A stretch of DNA of 46,956 nucleotides from IMG/VR virus record IMGVR_UViG_3300030102_003865, positions 1 to 46,956 of that record, one strand, 5' to 3'. The notes beneath the pieces are model-generated. The model did not search any database. It was not told the DNA's origin and saw nothing but the letters and a program-made list of their open reading frames with translations. The translations under genes and the position numbers were made by a program. Position 1 is the stretch's first letter. Each line of letters starts with the position of its first letter. Of this stretch, positions 174 through 21,100 are shown piece after piece. This stretch comes from a virus. Its lineage: Duplodnaviria > Caudoviricetes.

Positions 174-248
174 ATTTATAAACTAAATATATTTTTATGA
201 ACAAATAGGGATAGACATATGAATGAATATGTGCGAATAGTACTTAAG

Positions 249-605
249 GCCCCCTTTCGGGGGGCGGGACTGAGAGAGTTAGTTCCAAGCGGTCGGCCTA
301 CCAAGGGGACCCAGTAAAGGCGAGATCAGTACAGACGCTGCACCTTCTAGCATAGGGCGAGTTTAGCACCTCGGAAATTCGATCTTCAAATCTCAGATAC
401 TTACGGCCAGTAATCGCACCGTGAGTCTGAAACAAGCGGGTTTTAACCCCGCCTGAATGCAACCATCTTAGCCCGTCCAATAGGCGTCACTTAGTGAGAG
501 CAGTGGACTGGATAGCTTAATCACTGACCAGCGGTCAGTTTCAGATAGCCTAGATCACGTGCCACCCGAAAGGTGATGGACCGCTTCGCGAGTTCCTATT
601 CAGGC
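249..605 (+). ncRNA. Candidate large structured ncRNA of unknown family
   Basis: GC-rich island between AT-rich flanks with no credible ORF. Helices: 249-254/260-265, 266-273/279-286, 399-406/419-426, 436-440/448-452, 475-479/504-508, 523-529/533-539, 563-566/572-575; long-range 287-294/579-586; crossing pair 451-458/598-605. Strand inferred from neighbours. Confidence 0.65.
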
Positions 606-649
606 CCGATAGATTGGCAACGATTTATAACACTTAACTTTACTAACTT

Positions 650-709
650 CGAAACCGCTGCTAGGCGGTCCGTATAGATTGAGCCCTATACGCTGATGAG
701 ATAGCTCAA
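650..709 (+). ncRNA. Hammerhead ribozyme, type II, 1-bp stem II with pseudoknot
   Basis: C-GAAA (650-654), stem III CCGC/GCGG, GUC cleavage triplet (cut after 670), stem I CGTATAG/CTATACG, CTGATGA-G (693-700); loop I TTGAGC (679-684) pairs with tail GCTCAA (704-709). Confidence 0.93.
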
Positions 710-710
710 A

Positions 711-741
711 CTTAACTTAACTTACTTAACTTACTTAAATT
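711..741 (+). repeat. CTTAA/CTTA leader repeat upstream of early gene
   Basis: CTTAACTTAACTTACTTAACTTACTTAAATT directly before ATG 742; related tracts at 633-649, 1211-1228 and 3548-3566. Confidence 0.85.
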
Positions 742-924
742 ATGCCTAAATTATTAGCCCTTATTGAAAACGGATTCATCACTGAAACTGATGTAAAACT
801 TGCTGCTACTAACTACGATTTGGACCCTATTATTAATGCCTTTGATGAGGCGGGCCAATTCGTTGAGATAACTACTCTTGAAAGTGAATTGTTAAATCAC
901 TTCGAAACAGTCCGAAACAATTAA
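742..924 (+). CDS. Small acidic hypothetical early protein
   Basis: 60-aa ORF, ATG after repeated leader, downstream of hammerhead 1. Confidence 0.7.
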   Translation: MPKLLALIENGFITETDVKLAATNYDLDPIINAFDEAGQFVEITTLESELLNHFETVRNN

Positions 925-941
925 TCCTTAAATTATTTATT

Positions 942-1151
942 ATGAAACAAATTAAATATTCAGATTTACAAGCTTTAAAACAACGGTGGCAAAAATTAAA
1001 AGACCGCCAAGAATTCGAAAAGGGGTCCTCAATGGCCCGTGGAGTCCCGCCCGTATGCACTGTTTACTGGACTGAAAAGGACTGGGCTAACTGGTTTGAA
1101 AGTAGGAAACCTTTAAAGCCTTTTGATGATTGGCTAAAAGATCAAATCTAA
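942..1151 (+). CDS. Small Trp-rich hypothetical early protein
   Basis: 69-aa ORF with AT-rich leader; stop codon abuts hammerhead 2. Confidence 0.75.
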   Translation: MKQIKYSDLQALKQRWQKLKDRQEFEKGSSMARGVPPVCTVYWTEKDWANWFESRKPLKPFDDWLKDQI

Positions 1152-1153
1152 TT

Positions 1154-1210
1154 CGAAACCGCTTAGGCGGTCTATACGAACTGATCACCGTATACTGATG
1201 AGATAGATCA
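1154..1210 (+). ncRNA. Hammerhead ribozyme, type II, 1-bp stem II with pseudoknot
   Basis: C-GAAA (1154-1158), stem III CCGC/GCGG, GUC (cut after 1172), stem I TATACG/CGTATA, CTGATGA-G (1195-1202); loop TGATC (1182-1186) pairs with GATCA (1206-1210). Confidence 0.93.
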
Positions 1211-1233
1211 CTAACTTAACTTACTTAATTATT

Positions 1234-2466
1234 ATGATTAATAGATTCGCTAATACAGCCAAAATCACTATAGCCCAGTTAAAACTAGGCTTTAAACTAT
1301 GGACCGAAAATTTAAATTTCGTTACCATTGCGGGGCCATCGGGCGATGGCAAGACTGAGATAGCAGCCACTGAACTGCCTGAAGTTTTAGGTATTGAAGA
1401 TCCTCGCCTTCATACCGAAGGCGGAGATGTTTATCTCCTTAATTATACTGACAAAGGACCGCAAGAGGCGGCGGGTTATGGCAAGGTAAATGATGATGGA
1501 ATCCACATGGACTTTACTGCTCCACGTGATCTTCCTACAGTCCACCGCGTAAAGAATACGGGCAACGGTGATATTAACCGCCCGATCCTTTTAATTCTTG
1601 ATGAGTTCAGTCTATACGATTCAACGGTGCAAGGAATGATCAGGCCGTTACAAGCTCGTAAAGGTAAACCAATGTTTGGTACTCATGAGCTTGCCCCAAA
1701 CATCAGGATATTGCTTACTGGTAACCGCATTGAGGACGGTTCACAAAATGCAACGGACCCTGATCAAGCGATCCTGACCCGTGGAAAGTTTTTCATTATC
1801 GACAATAACTTTTCGGACTGGATCAAATGGGCCTCATCAAAAGATTGGGCGGTTCAAAATGATGTTATCCAATATCTAAAATACGTCCAATCTATGGGTG
1901 ATACAGTCCGCACCGCTGAAGGTGAAACCCGCCTGAAGATTGATGAGATATTCAAACCTACAATCCCAATGTCAGGCACTGTAAATCCTACAGCTTGCCC
2001 CCGTCAGTGGGAAAACGTTTGCCGAGAGTTCAAAGCTATTCAGGGTATGAATATAACGGACTCTGAAAAAGAGGACCTCTTAAGAATGTCATTAAATGGC
2101 GCGGTGGGAATCAATGTTACTGAGGATATCATGAGCTTTATTCAATCCGTAAAGGATGCGATTCCTAAATATCAGGATGTACGCAATGACATTAAATCGA
2201 TGGCGGACTTCAGTGGCATTGATGCAATGGCAGTGCTCACTGTTGCTACTCAGCACGTGATTAAGGAAGCTAAGAAAATTAGTGGGGCTGCTGAGCCTGA
2301 GCAAATCCGAAAAGATACAGGGCTCAAAGTTAAAGACGGGTCCTTTGATTGGTTTCTTGATAAGTTCATTGACCCCGCAACCAATCAAGAGATGGCGCGG
2401 TTTGCTGCTGAATCTGCTGATCGCTTTGTGAAATTTGAAGGTAACACCACCAAATATAAATTTTAA
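1234..2466 (+). CDS. MoxR-like AAA+ ATPase
   Basis: Walker A GPSGDGKT, Walker B LLILDE, sensor LLTGN, PRQW motif; vWA gene nearby. Confidence 0.85.
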   Translation: MINRFANTAKITIAQLKLGFKLWTENLNFVTIAGPSGDGKTEIAATELPEVLGIEDPRLHTEGGDVYLLNYTDKGPQEAAGYGKVNDDGIHMDFTAPRDLPTVHRVKNTGNGDINRPILLILDEFSLYDSTVQGMIRPLQARKGKPMFGTHELAPNIRILLTGNRIEDGSQNATDPDQAILTRGKFFIIDNNFSDWIKWASSKDWAVQNDVIQYLKYVQSMGDTVRTAEGETRLKIDEIFKPTIPMSGTVNPTACPRQWENVCREFKAIQGMNITDSEKEDLLRMSLNGAVGINVTEDIMSFIQSVKDAIPKYQDVRNDIKSMADFSGIDAMAVLTVATQHVIKEAKKISGAAEPEQIRKDTGLKVKDGSFDWFLDKFIDPATNQEMARFAAESADRFVKFEGNTTKYKF

Positions 2467-2520
2467 TCTTATCCTTATTAACTTTATTTAAAAATAAATT
2501 AACTAACTATAACTATAAAT

Positions 2521-3459
2521 ATGAAATCATTCGACATTGAAAAAATCGGTAACGGACTTAGCTCTATTGTAAACGTATATGTGAAATTCACATCACCCAA
2601 TCTAAGCAAGAAAAACAGCAAGCTAATCGCTGAACTTGCTGACAAATATGGGACTGATGAGTCCAGTCTATTGGCCTCTGAAAAGTTATTCCTGAGACGT
2701 GATACGATCTTTGGGAAGCTCACATCAGCCACCGTAAAATTTAAAACTGCGATGGCTGCTGATGAAAATAACAAGGGCTTAAAACTCCCTACGAATCCGA
2801 TGACAGGGGCTATCGAAGTACCCGCTGATCAGCTTATGAAAAAGCTAGAGATCCGTGACAAGTTCATCGGGCCTGAAGGTGAGTTCACCATCCTGAAGGA
2901 ACGCCTTCGCGGTATATTCTCAGAGCTCAAAGCTGCCTCTAAAGAGAGGCTCGGCAAGCTCGGTGAGGAGCATGACTGGGACTCATTCACTGAAGCAAAA
3001 TTCGTGGATAAGTATACCCTAACAATGCACTGGGTCCAGTCCACCTACGCGCTAAAAACTAGTCGTGATTTGGCGGTTGCTCAAGAGGTTGCTGATATCG
3101 CGATGGCTAATCAGCATGACGCAATGGTGAATCTTGCCAAGGGGTCCATCAGCAATCTTCTTAGCTCAATGACTGATGAGCTGAAGAAATCCCTATCGCA
3201 AGTCCGTGAGGGCGATCGCTTCGGGCAGCTTGCATTCGATAGGTTCGGACGTGCATACAACGCGCTCAACTCTAAAGCTAAATCCTTTTTTAATAAAGGC
3301 GATATCACCGAGCTTGATGACTTGCTCGATAAGTTCAACGCCCTTGGCAAAATCAAGCGCGATAACATTGAGACCAAGGCTCAGCGTAGTAAGACCGCTG
3401 ACCGTATCGAGTCCGTATTGAGTGAACATGATGACCTCATGGATCAGCTCGGACTTTAA
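2521..3459 (+). CDS. Helical hypothetical protein (possibly DUF3150-like) between ATPase and vWA genes
   Basis: 312-aa charged helical ORF; family guess rests on size and gene context only. Confidence 0.55.
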   Translation: MKSFDIEKIGNGLSSIVNVYVKFTSPNLSKKNSKLIAELADKYGTDESSLLASEKLFLRRDTIFGKLTSATVKFKTAMAADENNKGLKLPTNPMTGAIEVPADQLMKKLEIRDKFIGPEGEFTILKERLRGIFSELKAASKERLGKLGEEHDWDSFTEAKFVDKYTLTMHWVQSTYALKTSRDLAVAQEVADIAMANQHDAMVNLAKGSISNLLSSMTDELKKSLSQVREGDRFGQLAFDRFGRAYNALNSKAKSFFNKGDITELDDLLDKFNALGKIKRDNIETKAQRSKTADRIESVLSEHDDLMDQLGL

Positions 3460-3478
3460 CCTTGAACCCTGAACCCTG
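3458..3478. repeat. AACCCTG heptamer x3 (first copy AACCTTG)
   Basis: aaccttg aaccctg aaccctg; same unit as 7477-7511. Confidence 0.8.
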
Positions 3479-3480
3479 AT

Positions 3481-3506
3481 CACTGCCCCCTAAACTGGGG
3501 GCGGTG
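3481..3506 (+). other. GC-rich intergenic hairpin (mRNA 3' stabiliser or atypical terminator)
   Basis: CACTGCCCCC-TAAACT-GGGGGCGGTG, followed by an A run rather than a U tract. Confidence 0.6.
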
Positions 3507-3514
3507 AAAAAGAT

Positions 3515-3542
3515 TTGACACTAACAAACAATTAACTATAAT
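3515..3542 (+). promoter_or_regulatory. Sigma70-type promoter
   Basis: TTGACA-N16-TATAAT, 29 nt upstream of ATG 3572. Confidence 0.8.
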
Positions 3543-3571
3543 CCTATCCTAACTTAACTAACTTTACTGAC

Positions 3572-5197
3572 ATGGAAATTCTAAATTTAAATCCTAAAAC
3601 TACCGACTGCCCTATGGTCAGGGCTCATTATCAAGTTCTGAAAATTGTTTCAGGCGTACTGAAAACTATTGCGGGGACCGTTCAATTTGTTCTCGATGAT
3701 ACCGTGGAACTAGCAGCGACCGACGGTAATTTTATCTACGTATCGAACCGTTGTTTTGTGATGGCTAAGGACGGCAAGTTTACCGTCAATGGCAAGCGCG
3801 TCAGTGCCATCGCAGCATGGCGGACTATAATTTTACACGAGTATCTGCACATTCTATTGGGTCATTGCACCTACAGAATGAGAGATCTTAACGCGAATCC
3901 TACCATCAAGAATATAGCGATGGATCACGCGGTCAATCTGATGGCTCAGGAAATCGGACGCACCGCGAATTGGGAATTACTATCCGAGCTAGGAATCATG
4001 GGCGAAGTTTTCCCAATATTTGACGGTCTCTTTTGTGATGCTAAATACACTGATCAGGATGCCGAGACAATCCTTAATGACCTTATTAAAAAAGAAGATA
4101 AGGGTACTGACATCAATGAGCCTGAAGGTATTACGGACGGTGATATCAATCCTGATGGTGATCCAACGGACGGTGACGGTGACGGTGATACTGATGCGGA
4201 CGCTGATGGCGATGATCCAACGGACGGGGGCGGTGATGGTGACGCTGATGGTGACGCTGATGGTGACGCTGATGGTGACGCTGATACGGGTGCTGATGGT
4301 GATTCGACGGACGGTGACGCTGATGGTGATTCGACGGACGGTGACGCTGATGGTGATTCGACGGACGGTGACGCTGATGGTGACGCTGATGGTGATTCGA
4401 CGGACGGTGACGCTGATGGTGAGGGCGAAGGTTCAAGCGACTCTGGATCTGGGGCGGGTGGTCAGGTCAGTGACAATGTAAGATATCCTGATCTCGAAGA
4501 GGGTGAGACCCCTGAAGAGGCAGACGCGAAGGCCCGCAAGAAAATCAAAGAGGCCGTAAGGATTCATGAGATGAGCAAGAAAGCGGGGCTCGAAGAGGCT
4601 AAAGACGGACTGACCCGCAAAGTATCTGATGCTTTCACCGCTAAGGCTAAAGTACCGTGGCAAAAAGTCCTCACTAATTGGCTCAAGCGTACTCTCAGCG
4701 GTGGATGGGATAAGCCTCAGAACATCCCAGTCTTAGGAGCAACTGATTTATTCAGCGCGGGCCGTGGATCTAAGAAGCTACCTGAGATCGCGTACATCAT
4801 CGACACTAGCTACTCAATGTCTGATGCTGTAGTGAATGACGGACTCGATCAGCTTGAGAATTTGATGAGGCAGTACAAGCCTAAGAGGACTCACGTTATA
4901 TGCTGCTCAACTGAGGTCGAGCTCAACAAGTCCAGATCCTACTCATCAAATCAGAGGATCGATAGATCAATCATCACGGGCGGTGGTGGAACTAGATTTG
5001 TCCCCGCCTTCGAATATGTGAAACGCTACCATCCGAATGTCGGTGCGGTGGTATACATCACGGACGGTGAATGCGATCAGCGTAATCAAATACCTCAGCA
5101 CTTGTTACCTGCCAAGTTGCTATGGGTTGTTTACGGTGGCATGAAACCCGAACGCTTTAAGTTAGGTAAAGTAGTAGAAGCTCCACCAGTGAGCTAG
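3572..5197 (+). CDS. HExxH metallopeptidase-like + vWA domain protein (DUF2201-type) with Asp/Gly repeat linker
   Basis: ATDG and HEYLH at the N-terminus; MIDAS IIDTSYS, GGGGT and YITDG at the C-terminus. Confidence 0.85.
   Translation: MEILNLNPKTTDCPMVRAHYQVLKIVSGVLKTIAGTVQFVLDDTVELAATDGNFIYVSNRCFVMAKDGKFTVNGKRVSAIAAWRTIILHEYLHILLGHCTYRMRDLNANPTIKNIAMDHAVNLMAQEIGRTANWELLSELGIMGEVFPIFDGLFCDAKYTDQDAETILNDLIKKEDKGTDINEPEGITDGDINPDGDPTDGDGDGDTDADADGDDPTDGGGDGDADGDADGDADGDADTGADGDSTDGDADGDSTDGDADGDSTDGDADGDADGDSTDGDADGEGEGSSDSGSGAGGQVSDNVRYPDLEEGETPEEADAKARKKIKEAVRIHEMSKKAGLEEAKDGLTRKVSDAFTAKAKVPWQKVLTNWLKRTLSGGWDKPQNIPVLGATDLFSAGRGSKKLPEIAYIIDTSYSMSDAVVNDGLDQLENLMRQYKPKRTHVICCSTEVELNKSRSYSSNQRIDRSIITGGGGTRFVPAFEYVKRYHPNVGAVVYITDGECDQRNQIPQHLLPAKLLWVVYGGMKPERFKLGKVVEAPPVS
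4135..4420 (+). repeat. In-frame tandem repeats encoding DGDA / DGDADGDST
   Basis: 12-bp GACGCTGATGGT and 27-bp GACGGTGACGCTGATGGTGATTCGACG units. Confidence 0.9.
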
Positions 5198-5774: not shown

Positions 5775-6005
5775 ATGAAAAAAATAATTAACGACTTCAT
5801 TGATAGGACTCTGTTCATATCTCTTTGTTCATTACTTTTTATCCTTTTCCTGCTGATTGCTGCAATAGCGGGAGGCTACGTGGCGGACGCGAAGACCGCT
5901 GTAATGAGGATCAGTGGATTCGAGATGTTCCTTTGTCTCGTGATCCTTCCCGCAATCACCGCATCAATCTGGATGCTTGTCGATAAACTTAACCAAACCA
6001 TTTAA
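5775..6005 (+). CDS. Small two-TM membrane protein
   Basis: Two hydrophobic segments; tightly packed in the operon. Confidence 0.7.
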   Translation: MKKIINDFIDRTLFISLCSLLFILFLLIAAIAGGYVADAKTAVMRISGFEMFLCLVILPAITASIWMLVDKLNQTI

Positions 6006-6017
6006 CTAAACTTAATC

Positions 6018-8495: not shown

Positions 8496-8822
8496 ATGCA
8501 GTTAACTTACAAAGTATCACCGCAATCTATCGCAAAAGCGATCAGTAAAGTCTCTGGATTCTCAGTTTATGAACTGAAGAACGAAGGGCATTCACATACA
8601 CTCGCCCAGTGGAGACACTTGGGAATGTACTTGGCCCGTGAATCGGGAATGACGTACGTTGAAGCGGGTGAAGTATTCAATCGCCACTTCTCAACAGCAC
8701 TGACCTCGCATAGGAAAGTCAAGAAATCCTTGGACGATCCTCAGATAGCAAATGCTTTAGGGCAAATTAAAAACTTTTTGAATAAAGAAAATAAAGACGA
8801 TGGAAATCAAGAGATTCTATAA
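8496..8822 (+). CDS. Stand-alone DnaA C-terminal (domain IV)-like HTH protein
   Basis: WRHLGMYLARESGMTYVEAGEVFNRHFSTALTSHRKV resembles the DnaA RQIAMYL...IG..F..RDHTTV....K signature. Confidence 0.75.
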   Translation: MQLTYKVSPQSIAKAISKVSGFSVYELKNEGHSHTLAQWRHLGMYLARESGMTYVEAGEVFNRHFSTALTSHRKVKKSLDDPQIANALGQIKNFLNKENKDDGNQEIL

Positions 8823-9139: not shown

Positions 9140-12100
9140 TTACGGATCTACCGATAAGAACCTTGGGTACTTATTCAACTCAGCTTGGAAGTCTCGGAGC
9201 CTTTGGATATGAGTCTCCCCTTTTCTAACCATACGTTCGATGAATGGCATAGGTAAGGATGGTCTATCCATGAGTCCTTTGGCTAGTAGCAACTGGACCC
9301 TCCTCTTACTCATCCCTCTTTGAAGACCGATCTTATAGATCTCTTCTTTGGATAAGCCTTGCCTCTCAAAAGATCTGAACACCCGATTCAGGTGAGCGTT
9401 GACTCTTCGTCTTCCCTCTATTTCTTTTTTTGCTAAAGAAGTTATCTCGGACTTGGTCATCACATCATCAGTCAACAGTCTAAACTTATTTGAGTTGATC
9501 CTATCGAACTCACCTTTCCTCTTCGACACGAAGTTAGATAACCGAACATCGAACTCAATCGGATAAGTCGTTGCGGGTTTGAACTGACCAATGATATTTG
9601 ATATAACTTCAGGAGCCTTAGTGATATCAAACCCATCTTTGAATATCGCCTTATCCTCTATCAGTTTGGTAAGAGTTGGAGGAGTTAATGCCTCATCCAA
9701 TACGTAGCCGAGAGACTTCGTAAATTTCTCATGGAGTAAATCATTCTCCTCGTAGATAGGTTCTTCTTTTTTCGGATCGAAGTTTGACTTCGCATTTAAG
9801 AAAGCCCTCATGAATATCTGATCGTCAAAGAATTCACCTAACGTTCCCTTCACTAAACTCTCTACCGTCTTGGAAGTATTACCGTGAACGAGATGTTCCA
9901 TCGCCCTTAGTGAAGGGTCAGTTAACATCGAGTACGGGTTAATGAAAGTTAAGGAGAAGTTCCTTCTCTCTTTAGTAAGAGGATTTGTATAGTATATGAG
10001 TGATTGATTCTGCATATACGGTGGCAACGTATCACGAAGAGCTTCATCGTCATCGTAGAATATTCCCTGAAGAAGTCTCGTAGTGATGGGAACTATGACT
10101 GAAGATACTCCAGTAACAAACCCGATACCTGCTAGTCTTCTACGTCCACGTTTTCTAATGACGGGGTTGCTATCTTTAGATTCTTTTAAAGCTAGGTTCC
10201 ACGTATTGAAATATGTTCTGATAACCTCACCTTTAAATCGAAGGAAAGGTGAGAACATAACTCCGAAGGTATGTCCCTGAAGTCCAGTGATAATAGGAGG
10301 AGCTTGAGAATATGTTTGAGAAGTCATGACAACTTTCTCGGCTGCTAATCTCTTTAGTTGATAATCAGTTTTGGTTGCATAAAAATCTTGCTTGCCATCC
10401 TTTCTCGATGCTTCTCTCGCATCGATAAGGTATTTAAGTTCATGCTCAAACAAGGCTATCTTGTAGAACGCATCAACAATAGCTGAAAGTTCTTTAGCCT
10501 TGCCCCATGTTTTCTCATTAGCTTTCTGAGCTAACTCTTTTCCTTTGCGAGAGATGCTCTTCCCCTCTTCGTTCTCTAGCCTTGAAAGATTTTTTTCAAA
10601 ATCATTTAAGACTTTTTCTGGAGAGGTCTGCCCACTGAGTAGCTCTTCAATTAGCTTGGGCCTAATCTCATTACCGATAACATCGAGAGCTATCAGTTCT
10701 GTATAGTAATCGTTTGCAGTTTCTTGACGTATTCCCCTTCGGTCTAATTCAGTGATTAAACTCTTGGTCATACTACCCCACTTAACGAATCCATTAGCGG
10801 GACCAAAGTAAAAAGCGTTTGATATTACGTTCCTTACATAGAAGCCAATGTTACCTAAAGTCTTAGACCCTAGAGATAGACCTGTTATTCTGGCTATCAT
10901 CTTAAAGGAACCACTCGCTATCTTTTCTGCATCGTTCGCTGACTCTTGACTAGGCGGATTTAATACGCTCATCAAGCCATCAACCATTTCAGCGGGAGCA
11001 AAGAGTTGTACGTTCTTTGGTTCACCATCTACCTCGACCTCGAAGTTTCTAAATGGGTCATAAGCTTCTGCTCCTCCTGCTTTAATTTGTTTATACCTGC
11101 TTCCACCATACTCATCTATGTTTTCTAATCTCTTTTTCTTGAGCTCATCCTTCGTAAGTATCCACTCGTTTCCTTTCCTGCGTCCGATCTCTAATAAGTT
11201 TTTCATGAACGCTTGGTTCGATGCCATCATACCAACGCTGAGGTAAGTCCTTAAAAGATTCTTGAACCCTGCACCCTCGTCAGTTTCCTCTCCAAGCAGA
11301 GCCCTGATTGATTCATCAATATCTCTTTTCTTTTTCAACTGATTTATCAGAGGACTAGCAAAGGATTCAACAGCTTCAGGTCCTGCTATCAAGTTACTTG
11401 ATTCCTTATCTTTATAACTATGGAGGAATGAAAGCATCATTGACCTACCTAAGTCTTTGTTCTCAGTAAGTTCTTTCTCAGCTAGTGCGGTAGCTTCGGA
11501 CTCCTCTTTACCATCTTTTATAAAGGCTTTAATACGTGCTTGTTTGTAGGTATCTGCAAAGTACTTAGCAGCATTGTCTCTCACGGTGCTGAACTTAGGA
11601 TCTTTGGTAACTTTATCCAACCACCCTGCTTCATTGAACATCTTATATGATCGGGTTATGTATATTCCTAAGTTACTATCTATCGTAGCACTTAGATCTA
11701 CATCCACATTGTAGAGTTCTTTAAGTTTAATCGAAAGAGAATCGACGGTATCACGTAATGCTTTAAGTTCATTAACGAATTCAGGGGATACCTTTTCAAG
11801 TTGAGTTAGTGCAGCGTCCTTTTTCTTTCTAATGATTTCTCTTTGAACGTCTTGCTGTTTGCGGATGTCGTTCTTGTATTTGTTTGTAGCATCCTCAAGA
11901 AGTGTTTTCTTTTCCTCTTCAGTTATCTCTTTACGTTTAGCCTTCTCGTTTATGTCCGCTTTTCTGGACTTGTGTTGAAGATTAATTGCATCTCTCACAT
12001 CATCAGGTATCGACACAACTTTCGAAGAACCTGTAGCTTCAGATATCAATTCGTACGGTATACTAAATCCTTTATCAATAAAGTCTTTATCAAGTATCTT

Positions 12101-15100
12101 CCTTAACTTCGTTGCTCTTAGGTTAACATCATTCTGGACAGCGCGGTTGAATGCTTCTCGTTGTTCGAACATACGTCTGACTCGGATATCAAGAGACCCA
12201 GTCATGGCGACTTTAAATTTACGCCACCAAGAATCCTTGCGTTTCTCTGAATCATATACACCGTCCTCGTAAACAGGAGCTTCTAACATTTTCTCTAACC
12301 TATCGACCGTCACTTCCTCTGTAGAGTAGGTGTATCCTGATATCTTTTTATCAGTAGCACCGAGCTCAGAGTACAAGAACGAATCCATTGTTGGATCAAA
12401 CCTATCAGTCAAAGGAATTATATTACCATCCTCATCGTAAGTTACAGGATCGGATAACTTTATTTGTTCGGGTGTGAGTACGACTGTTATGGTAGCATCT
12501 TCCCCACTGTTTGTTACAAAATCAGCAGTCAAAGCATCTATACCAGTAACTTCTTTGAGAGCTTGGTGATAATGTTTAGCGTATATACCACTACCGTTCA
12601 TGGCTCCAAGCTGTTCGGCTATTGTTTCATTTTGAACAGGATCAGAAAGCATTTCAACAGCGGCCTCTATGCTCCCAAAGTTGGCTACAAAAGTATCATT
12701 GATACTTGCTTCAGGATCTTCTTTTAGCATATCTTGAAACTCCAACTCGTTTACTCTTTCAAGTACGGGTCTCAGTTCCTCTGCCGAAAGAGGGGCGGAG
12801 TCATGAGGGCGTGGGTTGTTTACTTTCAGATACGCAGAAAGAATTCTTCCTCTAAACTTACCTACGCGAGTATATCCCTCCGCAACTGTCCGTGATTTTG
12901 TGAAATAAAAACCTGTACCGTACGCAAAACCTGTACCGAATCCTATCTTACGGTAAGAGAATGCATCGAAATCAGCGGGGGTTCCGTGGAACAGAGGACC
13001 AACAGTGTACCCTGTAGACTCCGCTGCTCGCTTCACGAACTGCTGAAGTACTTCTTTATTTCCTTCAGGATCTTGAGCTAACTCCATGTACCTATCGTTG
13101 GTAGCACCGAGTTCAGATTTTAACAGGTCTTCTTTGACAGGCTCAGTCGCAATTAACAAATTACTTTTCTTAATTACTTTACCAAAAAACTCTTTAATCT
13201 CAGGGACATAGTCGGCTGCTTTCTTATGGTTCTGCCACCCTTTAGTAGTGGTTTTCCCAACGCCATCCCTGTTACCTTCATGAATTAAAAAGTAAGCTTT
13301 GCCCTCTGGTTTTATAGCATTAGCTGCTTGCCTGATTACAAGCCCCCTGCTGTCTTCCTCCTGTATAACATTCAATACGTTATTAACAGTAGCCGTGTCT
13401 GATTGACCGTCTCTTATCTCTTCAACTACTCTCTTATTGTGTACTTCTCCTCTGTTAAATGGATCATATATAAAGTTAGCAACTCCTAAAGTAGCTAGTT
13501 TTTCTGTACCATTATCAAAACTTCCTCCTCCTATATCAGCATTCTTAGTTCCCTCTTCCCATTCAATTATTCCTTTATCTGTTAAGGAGCCAAAGGTAGC
13601 GGGTAGTTTATCTCTATTGATTGAGGTATCAGCACTAGATATTTGCTGACCTTCTGGGTAAGTCCATATATTTTCAGTAGCACCAAGGCCACTATGTAAA
13701 AGTCTTGGACCCGTATCAAACCTGTTACTTAACGGAATGATATCTCCAAAGTCATCGCGCGTTACCTCCGCAGATTTAATTTGTTCAGGTGAAAATACTA
13801 CCCAAACATCAGAAGCTTCATAATGGATAGCGTCGTAACCACTTATCTTTGAAACCAACTTAGTTGCTGCTGCTCTTCGATTTGTTTGGTCTGGAGATAT
13901 ACGGATAACGTCTGCACCTTGCCTCGCGAATGTCTCGCTACGAGTCGTATCAAAATCTTCAGCCGACTTAATAAGGTCCTCTTCAATCTTACGGAAATTA
14001 GAATTTTCAGGATAAGTTTTAACAAGTTCTCTTACTTGTTGATCAAACTTTAAGCCATCTACTAAGTAAACTATAGGTTGCTTTTCGGTAGCATAACCCG
14101 TTTCATATAAAAACTGATCGATTTCTATTTCCGATAAGTTGTACTCACGCGATAAACCTTCAGCAAATTCTTTAAAAAACTCTTGTTTGTCTTGGATTGC
14201 CGCATCAGTTCCGCTACTGTAATCTTCTATGAGTCTGTAAGATCCTTCAGTATGGCTTACTCTTGTTCTAAAAACTTTGTCCGCTTTTAGAAATGTTTGA
14301 TAAACTCTACCAACATCTCCCTGCGCGTAGTTAGCTGCTACATTATAGTTGCCTGTAAAATAAAACCCATGACCACCGACACTTCTCATTATAAAATTAC
14401 TGTCGAAAGTTTTTAAGTCTTTGTTAGTAGATCCGTGGAAAACAATAACAGGTGCTCCCTCTACTACATGACCCTTCTGTCGGGCTTCAGTTTCCAATAG
14501 CTGTGTTAGTGAAAGGTCGCGCTCTTTAGAAGGATCGGCTGCATCCATGTACGCTTGTCCTCTGACAGCTTTTATCTTGTCTCGATAAGTTCCCTCTCTT
14601 TGCATCTTTAGATGCTCTTTAGAATTTACTACAACAGAGTTAGTTGGGTTGGGGTAGGCGACTGAGTCTCTTGGGTTGCCTGTTAGGTTACCTATGGTGA
14701 CATGATAAATTCTGTCCTTATCAGGAGAAGGCCCGCCTATTATATTCTTTTCTACAAAATTATTTAAGACTTCTTGTTCAACAACTCTACGTACCAATGA
14801 CTGTCTAAGCGTACCGTCAGGTTGTATTTGAGTAGATATTTCAGGAGCGTGAAACGTGAGGTTAGGGAACACTGCAACAGGGCTCTGTCCAGTAAGACGG
14901 AAAGCCTCTCCTAAGATATCAGTTTCTGCTACCTCGTCAGTAAACTCTTTACTTATCAAAGTAATATGTATGTCTTCTTCTTTTAGAGGAATGAAATTAC
15001 TTTTCCCAAACTTAAAGTTTTGTTGTTCCTGTTGAACGAGTTCCGAAAGTTTTTCTGACTTCAACATATAGATGCCAGTCTTAACAACCCTGCCCTTTAT

Positions 15101-18100
15101 AGGGTCCTCGTTGTTATTAAGGGCTTCAATATCAAAAGGACCTAAATCAGATAGCCTTAGTTCCTGCCCTCCTCTATCAATCTTGCGATTGTTGCCCATC
15201 ATATCAGAGAACTCTTGAGCAAGAGGAATCAATTCCTCTATGGGAAGATCTACTACATTGACATTTGCCATAGACTCTGGATTGATCAACATCATTTGAC
15301 CGTATCGATGATTGCCATCAAGAATAAATCCGTCAGAGCTCATCACTGAAAAAGGTTTATCGCTTAAACCTCCGACAGAGTCTTGCATATTGAAGTGCTT
15401 TTGCATAGCAAACCAAACTGTTTTAGGGAAAAACAATTCAGTCTGATAGGGTTTCATAGTAGCTACACGAACACTCTTTTGCCTCACGCTTACTGGTCGC
15501 TCTAACTTTTCACTCAAGAATCTACCAAACTCTTCTACTTGTTGAGGTTGAACGATTGGCATTTCTTCTCTCGATACCTCTCCTATCTGCTCTCTAGTCT
15601 CTAATAAAATAGCTTTAAGATTATTATAGTTCGATTCGAATTCTGGTATCTCATCAAGGAATGATCGAGCAACTCCCATCTCATCAAATTTACCCTGAGC
15701 CCTGATCCCTGCATCCTTAGCCGATGTATCAAGAATCCTGTCTGTCTCTGGTCCTGCCTCTATTGGCTTTCCAGTTATCCCCAAACTTGTAAACAGTACC
15801 TCTGTTCTCATTGGGTCGAAGCGGAGATCAAGAGGAACGACTTGTGTTTCATAGCGGAGACCTCCATCTTCTCTATCTTCTACAGCATTCAAGGACTGTT
15901 TAAAAGTAACTGTCTCAGCAGACTTTATATTATAAGGTTCAAATATAGCAAGGCTTCTACCATACTTACCCGATGTATCTTCTCTTTCGTAGTGTCCGTC
16001 ATACCCTAATCTTTTAAGAGCGTTACGTACTGAAAGATTTATCTTACGAGGATCGTCATCGTAAGCTAAGTTAGTAACTTCGTAATTAGAGAAGAACGAA
16101 TACTGTCCCTGTTTCAGCTTCTCTCTAAACATGCTCTCATCAAACTCCCCCTCAGATAGATTTTTAAATTCATCTTCTTGCTTTAGCTTTGAGATAAATT
16201 CATCAACCTGAGAAGGATCTTCATGATCAAATAATTTAAGGTCCTTCTTAATATACCAACGATGTAAGATTATATCTGAAAGAGACTCTTGTTGAGCTAT
16301 GGCTGAGATACTTTGTGCATCTTTAGGGGTCTCTGAAACAAAAGCAGACACGGTCCCGAACCTAGTTTGAGGAGTATCTATATTATACTTGGTACTTCCG
16401 TGATAGTACACGGTACTAGTATCATAGCCATTAGCCTCTGCTGCCTTTTTTACTAAAGCATTTAAGTCAGCTACAGACTTTTTATTATCAGCCACCCAAG
16501 CGTCCAGTATTTGGACTTTAGCTCTTGTGTTATCTTCTTCATTTAAAATACTAACATCTAATACTTTCTCTACCTCCTTAGAGTTCAATAAATCCTCAAG
16601 ATTATTGTTACCTGAGTCACCTGTTAAGATAAGCTTACGGAATTGTTTAGTATCAGCAGCTAATTCTGATTGAAGTATATCAGGGTCTTCGAGTTCGGGT
16701 GTGTCTTCAGGGAACACCTCACCTAAAGTTGTGTTTTGTAGTCCTGTTATATAATCATCAGGACTATTTGGATCAAACACAAGATTCCCCGCAGTGAATC
16801 GGTCCCTCCCCATTAAAACATTTATTTCCTCAACCAAATTAGATATTGCCATATCCATTTCAGGCGTGGTAAGTCCCTTCTTCTTTAGTTTGAGTAAGCG
16901 TGAGACCATTCTTCTTAAATACTCAAGTACTATCTGAAGTTTAGTAGGGTCTCCTGTCCAAAATTCATAGTTCGCCTCTGAAGTAGTCCCCGTCATTCTA
17001 TCCTGAGCATACATACGGAGCTTTTCCTCTATAAGAATCTCTTTAGTTTGCTGAACGGTAGTCTCTTCTTCTGATTGTAAGGCTGCTTTTAGTTGCTCGT
17101 TCCGTGCAGGGTTATCTGGAGTGTACTCATCAACAATAGTCTCAAACTCTGCATCAGTAGTTTCATTAATTAACTTGTTTAATTGTTTTTTAGATATAGA
17201 TCTGTACGAAGCAACGTGAGCTACTTCTTCTCCCATAATAGAATTAAGTATCCGACGAATTACAGATTCTGATTTACCTTTCTTAATTAAATTAGCTACC
17301 GAGTTCTGGTTAAGGAATACATCACCCGTCCTAGCACGAGCAGCAGCAAGTCCTCCAGTCGTGTTAGTAATATTTAAGCTAAGTCCGTTACGCCTAACAA
17401 ACATCCCCATGCGATTTATCAATCGCGTTAAAATATTTGATTCATCTACTGTCAGAGTATCATCTGATTCTACTTTTGAGGTATCCGTTTCATCTTGTCC
17501 CGCTTCTTGATTATCAAGTCTCCTCTTATTTGTAGGACTAATCTCAGTTCTAAGTACATCAGGTTCACCTGTAGCTCTTGGAGACCATACCTCTTCGACA
17601 CCTTGCTCAACAGAACCAACACTTTTGGCTATCTTCTGCAACTTGCGGAGGTCATCGATTGTACGACTTGTTATATCCGAAACACTTTCTGTTGCGGTAG
17701 GCACATCAGGAGTTGCTTGTTCTCCGAAAGCATAGTGAGTTGTAGTATGTGCTTCGGCAGAACTCTTTCTTATCGCATTGATAACAGCGATTGTTTTTGG
17801 AGTGCTGAATGACTGTCCTAAAGTTGCTTCAACTCTTGCCCGTACGTCTTCAAGTAAAGCTAAGTCTTTAGTTATGTCTCCTTCTTTGCTAACCGAATCG
17901 GTAGTACCACTAATAAGTCTAAGTAGAGTATGTAAAGGACGACTGTCTTTGCCCCTTAAAGATTTTTTATATAAATCTAAGAAGGCTTGGCCCATTGTCT
18001 TTTCTCTAGTTAGAGTGGTTTTACTATCTAGATCTATAGAGCGTAGCGTAGGACCTTGATCGAGTATCAAGCCTAGTACTTCGTTTCCTGACATTACACC

Positions 18101-21100
18101 AATACGCCAGTCTGCTTGCCCATCGACATCTCTTATAGCGGTGGTTATATCAAGATAATTATTAACCGCTTCCCGTAAAGATGCGTCTTCTTCAAGAACC
18201 GCAGCGGCATCAAGAGCTAGATCGTTCATGAAATTAACCGCAGCAGGATCGAAGGTCGCTGCAACTGAAGGGTCTACCAATCTTACGTACCTACGTGTTT
18301 GTGTATCTTTAGGGTAGAATTTTCCTTCAGCGTCTTTGTAGTTTGTTTGGAAAGAATTAAATCTATTAAATACTCGAAGACCTACTTCACGGAAACTAAT
18401 AGAATCTTTTTGGAGTAAAGGATCATTAAGTACATAGTCCGAAAGGAACTCTAATATTACTTTGTCTGACTTAGTTTCTGAAGTAGCTAAGTTTATTTTT
18501 AAAACAGAAGCTGCTTGCTCAACAGCATCAGGATCGGATGAAGCTAACCTACTCTTAAAAACCTCAAGGCCCTTTTTAGTTGGAGTAGTTACACCAGTGT
18601 CTTCATTAATTTCAACCGCCCCCTCTGTTTCACGTAAGGTTGTGTTCAATTCGTGGAGAACTGTAACCATATTAAACTCTTGCTCAAGAGCTATAACAGC
18701 TTGATCTGAGAAGTCAGACTCAAGTACATCTTGAGCTTTAGGTGATTTAAGAAGGTTTAAAGCTTCAACTTTACCTTCAGGGTTTTCGCGAACAGCTTTG
18801 AAAAAATCTGTGATCTGTTGGCGTACTTCTCTTATAGGCTGCTCTTTGGATTGAGCTGTTCCTTTTTTCCTGAAATTAGATCTTAGTTCGGTTCCCTCTC
18901 CTAATGGTCTAGTACCTACAACAACTCCTCTTTCATTATTTGAAAAAAGATTTAGTACTTCAGTATTGCTAGATAAGTTATCTGCAACTGAAGGGAATAC
19001 TTCGTTGATTGAGTTTTTGTTTACTCGTTTATTACCTGAGAAACCTCCATCAATTAGAACTCCCTCAATCAAATCACTGCCTTCTTTATAAATGAAAGCA
19101 GGGTTTAAATCCGCTTTTGATATAGGGGCTTTGATGGAATAACCCATCAATAAAAGCTTTGCTGCCTTAACAGGATCATTCTCAAACAGTGCGTTTCCAT
19201 CACTATCTAAGTATCCAATAACTTTACCATTATCCTTTACAGGGTTTTTAACATCTTGAGGCAAAAAGCTAGAGCGTTTAGGATAACGACGTTGTATTAA
19301 CTCATTTAAAAGTTGAGATTTATTTTCATAATATCCTTTAGGGAACATTGACCTATCAGGCATACCATGAACAGCGCGGTCTTGAGTAAGATCAACGGGG
19401 ACCCCTTTACGTATTAAGTCTTCAAAAGCTTTTACCTCAGTAGCTGTAAGGTGGTCATCAATAAATTCTTCTTTAGCAATAGGTATATCAGCAGTAGGGA
19501 ATACATACTCCTGCCCTTTGATAATGCTAGTGCTTTCGTTCAGACGAGATATAAGTTGCTGTAACTTTCTTTCTTCAGGATGTATCTTTTTGGTTTTAAC
19601 TTTTTGTTTTGTTGCTTCGTTAGCAACTCCTGAAGTAGGTTGGCTAGATGTATTAGAACGAGAATCTAGTTGAGAAGCTAAAGACTCAGCTACAGATTCA
19701 GGAGATATTTTTTCATCTAGAATATTTAAAAAATTGTCTTGGTACTCTAATTGAAACTCAAGTTGCGTGGGATCATCAGGTGTAGCTTCAAAATCTAAAG
19801 CTAACTCTAACTGAAGTTCTTCTTGTTCTTCTTGTTCTGCTCTATCAGGACCCTCGCTATCTATAAGACCTGAGAAAGGAAACTCTGTTTGGTCTTTAAT
19901 AGAAACAGGAACTAGATTGCCTTTTTCGTCAGGTACAAGGGTTGTTTCAACAGGGGATACTGCGGTATCTTCTGTAGGGTACGTTCCTTCTCCTGCTATA
20001 GGTTCTAATTCTGGAGTTTCTTCTGGAGTTTCTTCTGGTCTTCTTCTCCTTCTTTCTCCTACCTCTCTTTGTGGAGCGGTTAATAACCGTCGAGTCTCTT
20101 GTGCTTCGAACTCGTCTGCTGTAGCGGGAGCTCCTGCCTCTTTAAGTTTTTCTATAATTTCATCTGCAACCTGAGCCCTGTACCTTGCTTCATCGCCAGT
20201 GGGTCCTCCAAGTTTATTATATAACCCTCTTGCTCCTGTAGCACCTCCACCAAATATTCCACCTAATAGCATAGAGTGTCCTACACCCGCAGCTATTTCT
20301 TTTAGCGGAGTGTCTTCATTAAGAGCAGCGTCCCTCACAAAAGTCTGTGCGAGTTCATCAATACCTTCTTCAATAGACTCACTTAAAGTACCTTCAATGA
20401 TAGGAGAGTTGCCTAAAGCTCTTCTCATTTTCTTTTTTAAGAATTTCTCAGCAACTTCGTTGGATACATCATCCCCTAAGTTTACGCCAAGTTGCCTATT
20501 CATTACCCCTTTCATCTGCCTGAAAGTCATTCCATCAAGGAATGCTTCTTCCAAACCACCGCGACCTAACTTCATAAAAGCAGTCGTGATCAATCCTGTA
20601 ATAGTTCCCGCCAACAAAGAAGATCCAATCGCTGCGTCATACTTCTCATCATGAGACATATCTTCAGGCATTGAATTATATATGGTGGTAAACATTCCAC
20701 CTGCACTTCTATTAGCTGACGTTACAAACAGAGAGCCAAAGGTTTTGGAACTCATGAGAAGCTTGTTATCAAGCATCTGGTTGTAGACGTTTATTGCTTC
20801 GATAGCATTTTTCTCGCTCGTGCTCCTTATAAGTTTTTCTTTTAAATTCTTTTCTGCTAGTTCCCTTACTGCAACTTCTCTAGGGTCCAATACCCTTGAA
20901 TATCCAAGACCTGCATCAACAGTCTTTTCTAAAAAATCTTTTTTGCTGGCTGTTCTTAACACTCCCCCAAGCATCCCTTTAGCAAATCCTTTGGCCGTAA
21001 GAGTAGTACCTGTCTTGAGTCCAATGTAAGCTGCACCACCCGCACCCATTGTAGCCATACTTAGAGCAGCCGTTGCTCCTATATCTACAAGCACTGGAGC

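Follow-up and report, generated by a model that had tools for sequence, protein, structure and literature searches.

The window analysed here, the whole 46,956-base stretch of a virus record (linear class, 78% complete), carries two type II hammerhead ribozymes near its left end, 5′ of a rightward gene block. The second of these, copy 2, is on its sequence a real and probably active ribozyme, and we consider it likely that it cuts the early transcript co-transcriptionally and so gives the ATPase-operon message a 5′ end of its own, with copy 1 doing likewise for two small genes. The observed basis for this reading is the anatomy of the two elements, the covariation of their helices and their position at the head of genes.

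RESULTS

Two Intact Type II Hammerheads

Stem II of copy 2 is formed by U1153-C1154 and G1202-A1203, stem III by 1158–1162 with 1167–1171 and stem I by 1173–1178 with 1189–1194; GAAA lies at 1155–1158 and the core CUGAUGA at 1195–1201, and a pseudoknot joins loop I (1182–1186) to the 3′ tail (1206–1210). The anatomy of copy 1 is the same (GAAA at 651–654, core at 693–699). All core positions of both copies agree with the consensus (CUGANGA and GAAA), and the A15.1-U16.1 pair is invariant in all 13 copies of the lineage described below. The GUC cleavage triplet ends at C670 in copy 1 and at C1172 in copy 2, where an earlier note on this DNA had correctly placed the predicted cut. In both copies stems I and III each have a closing loop, stem II is open and begins with G10.1-C11.1, and loop I pairs with the 3′ tail, the arrangement of the type II class; the stem II of 2 bp is common in the family.

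We assigned the class on these defining features and not on the Rfam score; the displayed Rfam alignment leaves the pseudoknot unscored. Rfam family RF02276 (Hammerhead_II) matches copy 2 at E = 5e-4, its 31.3 bits falling short of the gathering score of 37; copy 1 is absent from the Rfam listing at E ≤ 10, and at the gathering level there is no Rfam match in the whole window. A scan of both strands of the 47 kb for all three hammerhead topologies returned copies 1 and 2 as the sole matches, and the same scan of eight block-shuffled windows gave one weak match in total and none of the quality of either copy. With intact core, type II anatomy, scan and shuffles in agreement, the hammerhead that the earlier note had reported from 1154 is thus present, beginning one base further 5′. 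The context described for it, between a stop codon and the leader of an ATPase gene, also holds (Table 1).

Table 1. Features at the left end of the window
Feature	Position	Strand	Remarks
Promoter-like site (tentative)	212..241	+	9 of 12; scan not above chance
Conserved ~390-nt structured non-coding RNA	245..632	+	ends about 40 nt 5′ of the copy 1 cut site
Type II hammerhead, copy 1	649..709	+	predicted cut after C670; 7-bp stem I, 6-bp pseudoknot
A/U-rich leader	710..741	+	AACTT repeats, without Shine-Dalgarno
ORF, 60 aa, no assigned function	742..924	+	in 9/11 lineage loci
ORF, 69 aa, no assigned function	942..1151	+	stop 1 nt 5′ of copy 2; in 4/11 lineage loci
Type II hammerhead, copy 2	1153..1210	+	predicted cut after C1172; 6-bp stem I, 2-bp stem II, 5-bp stem III, 5-bp pseudoknot
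A/U-rich leader	1211..1233	+	AACTT repeats, 5′ of ATPase start
P-loop ATPase	1234..2466	+	PHROG 1297, E 2e-23; weak match to MoxR-like phage ATPase

By its gene content (terminase, tail protein, family A polymerase, helicase, amidase and a 4491-aa ART-PolyVal protein) the source of the record is a tailed phage, and we infer from position and content that the rightward block holds early genes. The ATPase is the first gene of a MoxR/VWA-like block (1234–5197, + strand), followed by a 312-aa protein of no recognized function and a DUF2201 peptidase-VWA protein; only seven clusters of ATPase homologues were found, and one relative has been catalogued in a Planctomycetota bin. A Shine-Dalgarno-like word at −20 to −4 is absent from all 32 starts. 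Leaders rich in AACTT or AACT and free of Shine-Dalgarno words occur, besides the two in Table 1, at 2496–2520, 3547–3571 and 5993–6017, heading left-arm genes that include genes with no ribozyme. The promoter scan gave 5 sites against 3.3 ± 1.9 in shuffles, which is not above chance. Elsewhere in the window, 8496–8822 (+ strand) encodes a small protein in which a DnaA C-terminal helix-turn-helix domain (E 3e-10) is recognized, and the 4491-aa polyvalent-type protein, with two ART-PolyVal stretches (E 2e-31), at 9140–22615 (− strand).

Covariation between the Two Copies

The earlier note had described the core and stem III as identical between the copies, which is right for the core and for the stem III helix and wrong for loop III (TTAG versus TGCTAG). 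It had also stated that stem I and the pseudoknot differ while staying paired. The 22 nt from the cut site to the core, the stem I region, align without gaps between the copies; in stem I four pairs are compensated, two unchanged and one broken (A·C), and in the pseudoknot one pair is compensated, four are unchanged and one is lost. Together 11 of 13 pairs are kept, five of them compensated, and two are lost, so that the statement stands for most of the pairs. When 13 substitutions were placed at random over the 26 paired positions (400,000 trials), at least 11 of the 13 pairs were kept with a probability of 0.0018, and at least five were compensated with a probability of 0.0011.

The reverse complement of either 6-nt stem I arm of copy 1 is exactly the corresponding arm of copy 2, an inversion in place for which template switching is a described mechanism (PMC8794818); the stem I change could have arisen in this way in one or two events, and the comparison of the two copies represents fewer than five independent events. 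The two alleles also need not have diverged in this genome, because the copy 2 allele occupies the first slot in three related loci (L126, L330 and L345). The two-copy argument is therefore weaker than it appears, as the stem I arms are inverted in place and the alleles change slot. The conclusion that the earlier note drew from it, that both copies are selected, nevertheless stands on other data: there is good support for both being maintained as functional hammerheads, and it comes more from the lineage and the family than from the two-copy comparison, which is undercut by the inversion and by alleles that are lineage-wide.

Alleles and Copy Number in Related Loci

A search with the ATPase found two related viral contigs, L125 (95%) and L126 (88%), and the hammerhead patterns found, among the matches listed, L227, L287, L300, L313, L318, L330, L333 and L345. 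With the window these 10 relatives make a lineage set of 11 loci, from which repeats of the L125 and L126 contigs were left out; about eight are distinct, because three pair off as matches with others in the set, L318 with the window, L313 with L126 and L227 with L125. A protein-based metagenome scan found no relatives, and an alignment-based viral scan added none.

In the 13 distinct hammerhead copies of this set 95.4% of the cells pair, and both-sided changes occur in 8 of 20 pairs (two in stem III, five in stem I and one in the pseudoknot), among them two compensated stem III pairs in copy 1 of L125. None of 500 shuffles reached the covariation score of the set, a result that is supportive and not a probability, because the shuffles ignore relatedness, which inflates the score. 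The only core change is at position 7, in L126. The seventh stem I pair is broken in 5 of the 13 copies and the sixth pseudoknot pair in 7. L126 and L330 carry a third stem I allele, by which a stepwise change of stem I is also possible.

The order of elements is the same in all 11 loci, namely the structured RNA, one to three hammerheads that each head a small gene, and the ATPase, before which the L287 contig stops. The small genes comprise at least eight different ORFs, and six variable ones from the relatives gave no Pfam match above the cut-off. After the first hammerhead the slots hold from 0 to 2 further copies, and the element directly 5′ of the ATPase is a ribozyme in 6 of the 10 loci that reach it and a small gene in the other 4. 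Two loop III alleles and two stem I alleles are present in all four combinations. L345 can be aligned to L330 in two blocks (88% and 92%) whose overlap lies at the ribozyme, with one ribozyme and a 101-codon gene skipped. Since slots, allele combinations and the element heading the ATPase differ among the lineage loci, copy number and position are fluid, and the simplest reading of these sequences would be recombination at the hammerhead repeat. A literature search of partial coverage returned no publication dealing with recombination at the hammerhead repeats of phages, and the part of Perreault 2011 (PMC3088659) available to us makes no mention of recombination between hammerhead copies.

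Type II Hammerheads in Viral Contigs

Patterns built from copies 1 and 2 match an estimated 600 and 190 stretches in viral contigs, of which 124 and 122 loci, respectively, were analysed together with loci from additional scans. Among the matches listed there are 435 unique type II copies, 418 of them with 250 nt of downstream sequence. For 356 of these 418 an ATG-led ORF of at least 40 codons is found on the same strand no more than 45 nt away, compared with 49 of 391 when the opposite strand is taken as a rough control. A stop codon lies within 33 nt upstream of 342 of 411 listed copies. The matches listed fall into 165 distinct loci of at least 2.5 kb, 59 of which hold two or more copies and up to 11; because the stem I arms differ within 56 of these 59, within-genome covariation is the rule in this class. 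In 98 of 121 GATAG-subtype phage copies among the matches listed, which were picked without regard to the tail, loop I can pair with the tail over 4 bp or more; when the tails are shuffled (500 rounds) the number averages 19 and does not exceed 29. Taken together, the closeness to start codons among the matches listed and the presence of up to 11 copies in 6 kb point to a role at the 5′ end of messages.

Several loci (L280, 6.0 kb; L047/L142; L279; L304/L359) hold 7–11 type II hammerheads, one before nearly each small gene, and many of these copies are followed by a strong Shine-Dalgarno. In eight loci (L262, L264, L276, L279, L308, L323, L334 and L357) a fixed CTGAAG follows the pseudoknot strand in loop I, and the tails covary.

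A Structured RNA Upstream of Copy 1

The stretch 245–632 has a G+C content of 52% compared with 40% for the genome and is conserved in 10 related loci, five of them full length and distinct (L125, L126, L287, L330 and L333). Double changes occur in 33 of 96 predicted pairs across the six full-length sequences, many of them owed to the distant homologue L333, and the window sequence taken alone folds no better than its shuffles (z −1.4). A coding role was rejected: the longest stop-free frame is 62 codons (59–75 among the homologues), and there is no common frame. A long-range pairing of 287–294 with 579–586 was dropped because it is broken in L333.

Searches for known or further members of this RNA were negative. 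Rfam gave nothing at E ≤ 10 over 245–616 and a single weak CRISPR-repeat match at 617–655 (E 6.5), and nothing at E ≤ 5 for the L333 and L287 homologues; blastn of 240–720 against 50,697 phage records gave no match. Of the hits in two scans with RNA patterns, 1 of 9 and 2 of 14 were real by profile search, all of them in relatives already known, and a pattern scan of bacterial genomes gave none. A literature search for large phage RNAs returned nothing specific, which cannot establish the RNA as unpublished. Just 5′ of the structured RNA, L126 and L330 have the word TATATTTG, which we take to resemble the Bacteroidota −7 promoter element and which precedes the first hairpin by about 7 nt; it is not kept in the window or in L125.

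A hammerhead lies directly 3′ of this RNA in all 11 loci, with its cut 48–83 nt beyond the last hairpin loop, a link that is partly built in, because the hammerhead pattern was the route to 8 of the 10 relatives and the ATPase the route to L125 and L126 only.

DISCUSSION

We propose that a single transcript starting at about 245 would be cut at 670 and 1172, to yield the upstream RNA, a 502-nt message for two genes (671–1172) and the message of the ATPase operon. The cut by copy 1 would both free the ~390-nt RNA and give the two small genes their own message. In the type II order the 5′ end of the 3′ product should still carry stem I, core and pseudoknot, so that the predicted stem I and pseudoknot would form a cap 61 nt 5′ of the ATPase start codon. 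The benefit may be that the 5′ end is uniform and protected and the leader rid of upstream sequence, as with the engineered RiboJ insulator. A structured 5′-OH end should slow the decay of an mRNA.

Cleavage by these copies is likely by analogy with tested ribozymes of the same architecture. Hammerheads cut after an NUH triplet to leave a cyclic phosphate and a 5′-OH, the pseudoknot is required for fast cutting, and tandem arrays of three bacteria cut in vitro, one of them also in E. coli (PMC3088659); against this, 4 of 18 consensus hammerheads were inactive when tested in that 2011 work. A structured mRNA 5′ end of its own was already proposed there for prophage hammerheads, and the biological purpose of bacterial hammerheads has been called unresolved (PMC6765202). 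With RiboJ the mRNA increases about twofold and the protein two- to tenfold (PMC6206723). Counting against the cutting role are the marginal stem I of copy 2, its Rfam score below gathering and the four of 10 loci with no ribozyme directly before the ATPase. In pseudoknot-free folding the stem I probability of copy 2 is 0.23 alone, 0.6–0.7 from 1140 and 0.05 from 671, where the stem cross-pairs with the copy 1 arm; that of copy 1 is 0.95 locally and 0.3–0.5 with the upstream RNA. The predicted openness of the ATPase start region is barely altered by cutting (0.45 to 0.51).

Because it is a direct repeat, the ribozyme with its leader is probably also a crossover point for the gain and loss of small genes. 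A wider reading joins these strands and is possible, if doubtful as a whole: the hammerhead with its leader may be a dual-use module, which as RNA excises gene-length messages and as DNA is the crossover point of a swappable array of accessory genes, and the first copy may in addition be the 3′-processing enzyme of an undescribed multi-domain phage RNA of ~390 nt.

Other accounts of the same elements appear less probable than transcript cutting for the genes downstream. One holds that only the first ribozyme has a selected job, to release the ~390-nt RNA and finish its 3′ end, with copy 2 a passenger in the cassette. The hammerhead right after the RNA in 11 of 11 loci while the later slots vary from 0 to 2, the failure to find any terminator-like site behind the RNA and the precedent of theta ribozymes, which are phage ribozymes at RNA 3′ ends (PMC10879173), speak for it; against them stand the search by hammerhead pattern that built in part of this link, the variable distance from RNA to cut, and the fact that later copies retain a perfect core and the family overall heads protein genes, and we regard the account as unlikely. 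We find it distinctly improbable that copy 2 is a regulated switch, in which a ribosome finishing the 69-codon ORF at 1151 would mask GAAA and stem III and so make cutting and ATPase expression depend on upstream translation. The stop codon does lie 1 nt 5′ of stem II, and copy 2 stem I is marginal and context-dependent in folding, but a stop is equally close in most copies among the matches listed (342 of 411), as expected of tight packing, the upstream gene is not the same among the relatives, and in L126 the same allele lies behind the non-coding RNA.

We give very little credence to the view that the copies are neutral or inactive repeats, their paired changes made by DNA template switching and their core homogenised by gene conversion. 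The exact in-place inversion of both stem I arms fits this view, as do the mosaic alleles, which indicate exchange between copies, and the chance of only 0.012 that 14 differences miss 13 core positions; it leaves unexplained, however, the compensation at one pseudoknot pair and, in L125, at two stem III pairs, the third stem I allele, the tolerated change at core position 7 in L126 and the family-wide pattern. It is hardly credible, finally, that the two cuts free the 502-nt piece for its ends to be joined into a circular two-gene RNA. Hammerhead cleavage leaves a 5′-OH and a cyclic phosphate, ends that would fit such joining, but only one copy is present in three lineage loci, one of them a contig-end-truncated locus, and circles and spliced products were sought in 2011 and not found (PMC3088659).

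The two copies resemble the type II hammerheads of Rfam RF02276 (Perreault 2011, PMC3088659) in stem order, core, GUC site, 2-bp stem II and the loop I-tail pseudoknot, and close relatives of them may already be in that sequence set; the ribozymes themselves differ from those in sequence only, scoring below the Rfam gathering threshold. The setting is also familiar, in that several hammerhead copies flank single genes or short blocks of varying identity in PMC3088659 too, clustered around variable prophage genes, whereas here the leader has no Shine-Dalgarno and the first copy lies behind a structured RNA. Like RiboJ (PMC6206723), the elements are placed for self-cleavage just 5′ of a start codon and a uniform hairpin-capped 5′ end; RiboJ is synthetic and single, while the phage copies are natural, repeated and capped by their own stem I and pseudoknot. 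The likeness is a functional analogy and does not make them one family. Theta ribozymes of gut phages (PMC10879173) are likewise self-cleaving phage ribozymes just behind a non-coding RNA, but they have an HDV-like fold and cut adjacent to a tRNA 3′ end. The element here is not a theta ribozyme: it has a hammerhead fold and lies about 40 nt behind the structured RNA, and neither tRNA nor tmRNA was found in the 46,956-nt window.

The layout has been known in phages since 2011, and the ribozyme pair alone is a further example of a class already described. It offers a test case for the purpose of phage hammerheads: stems are swapped between natural alleles, genomes differ in having one, two or three copies, and the ATPase gene occurs both behind a ribozyme and without one. 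The interest of the locus comes mostly from the shuffling of cassettes and from the neighbouring ~390-nt RNA, which is the part most likely to be new.
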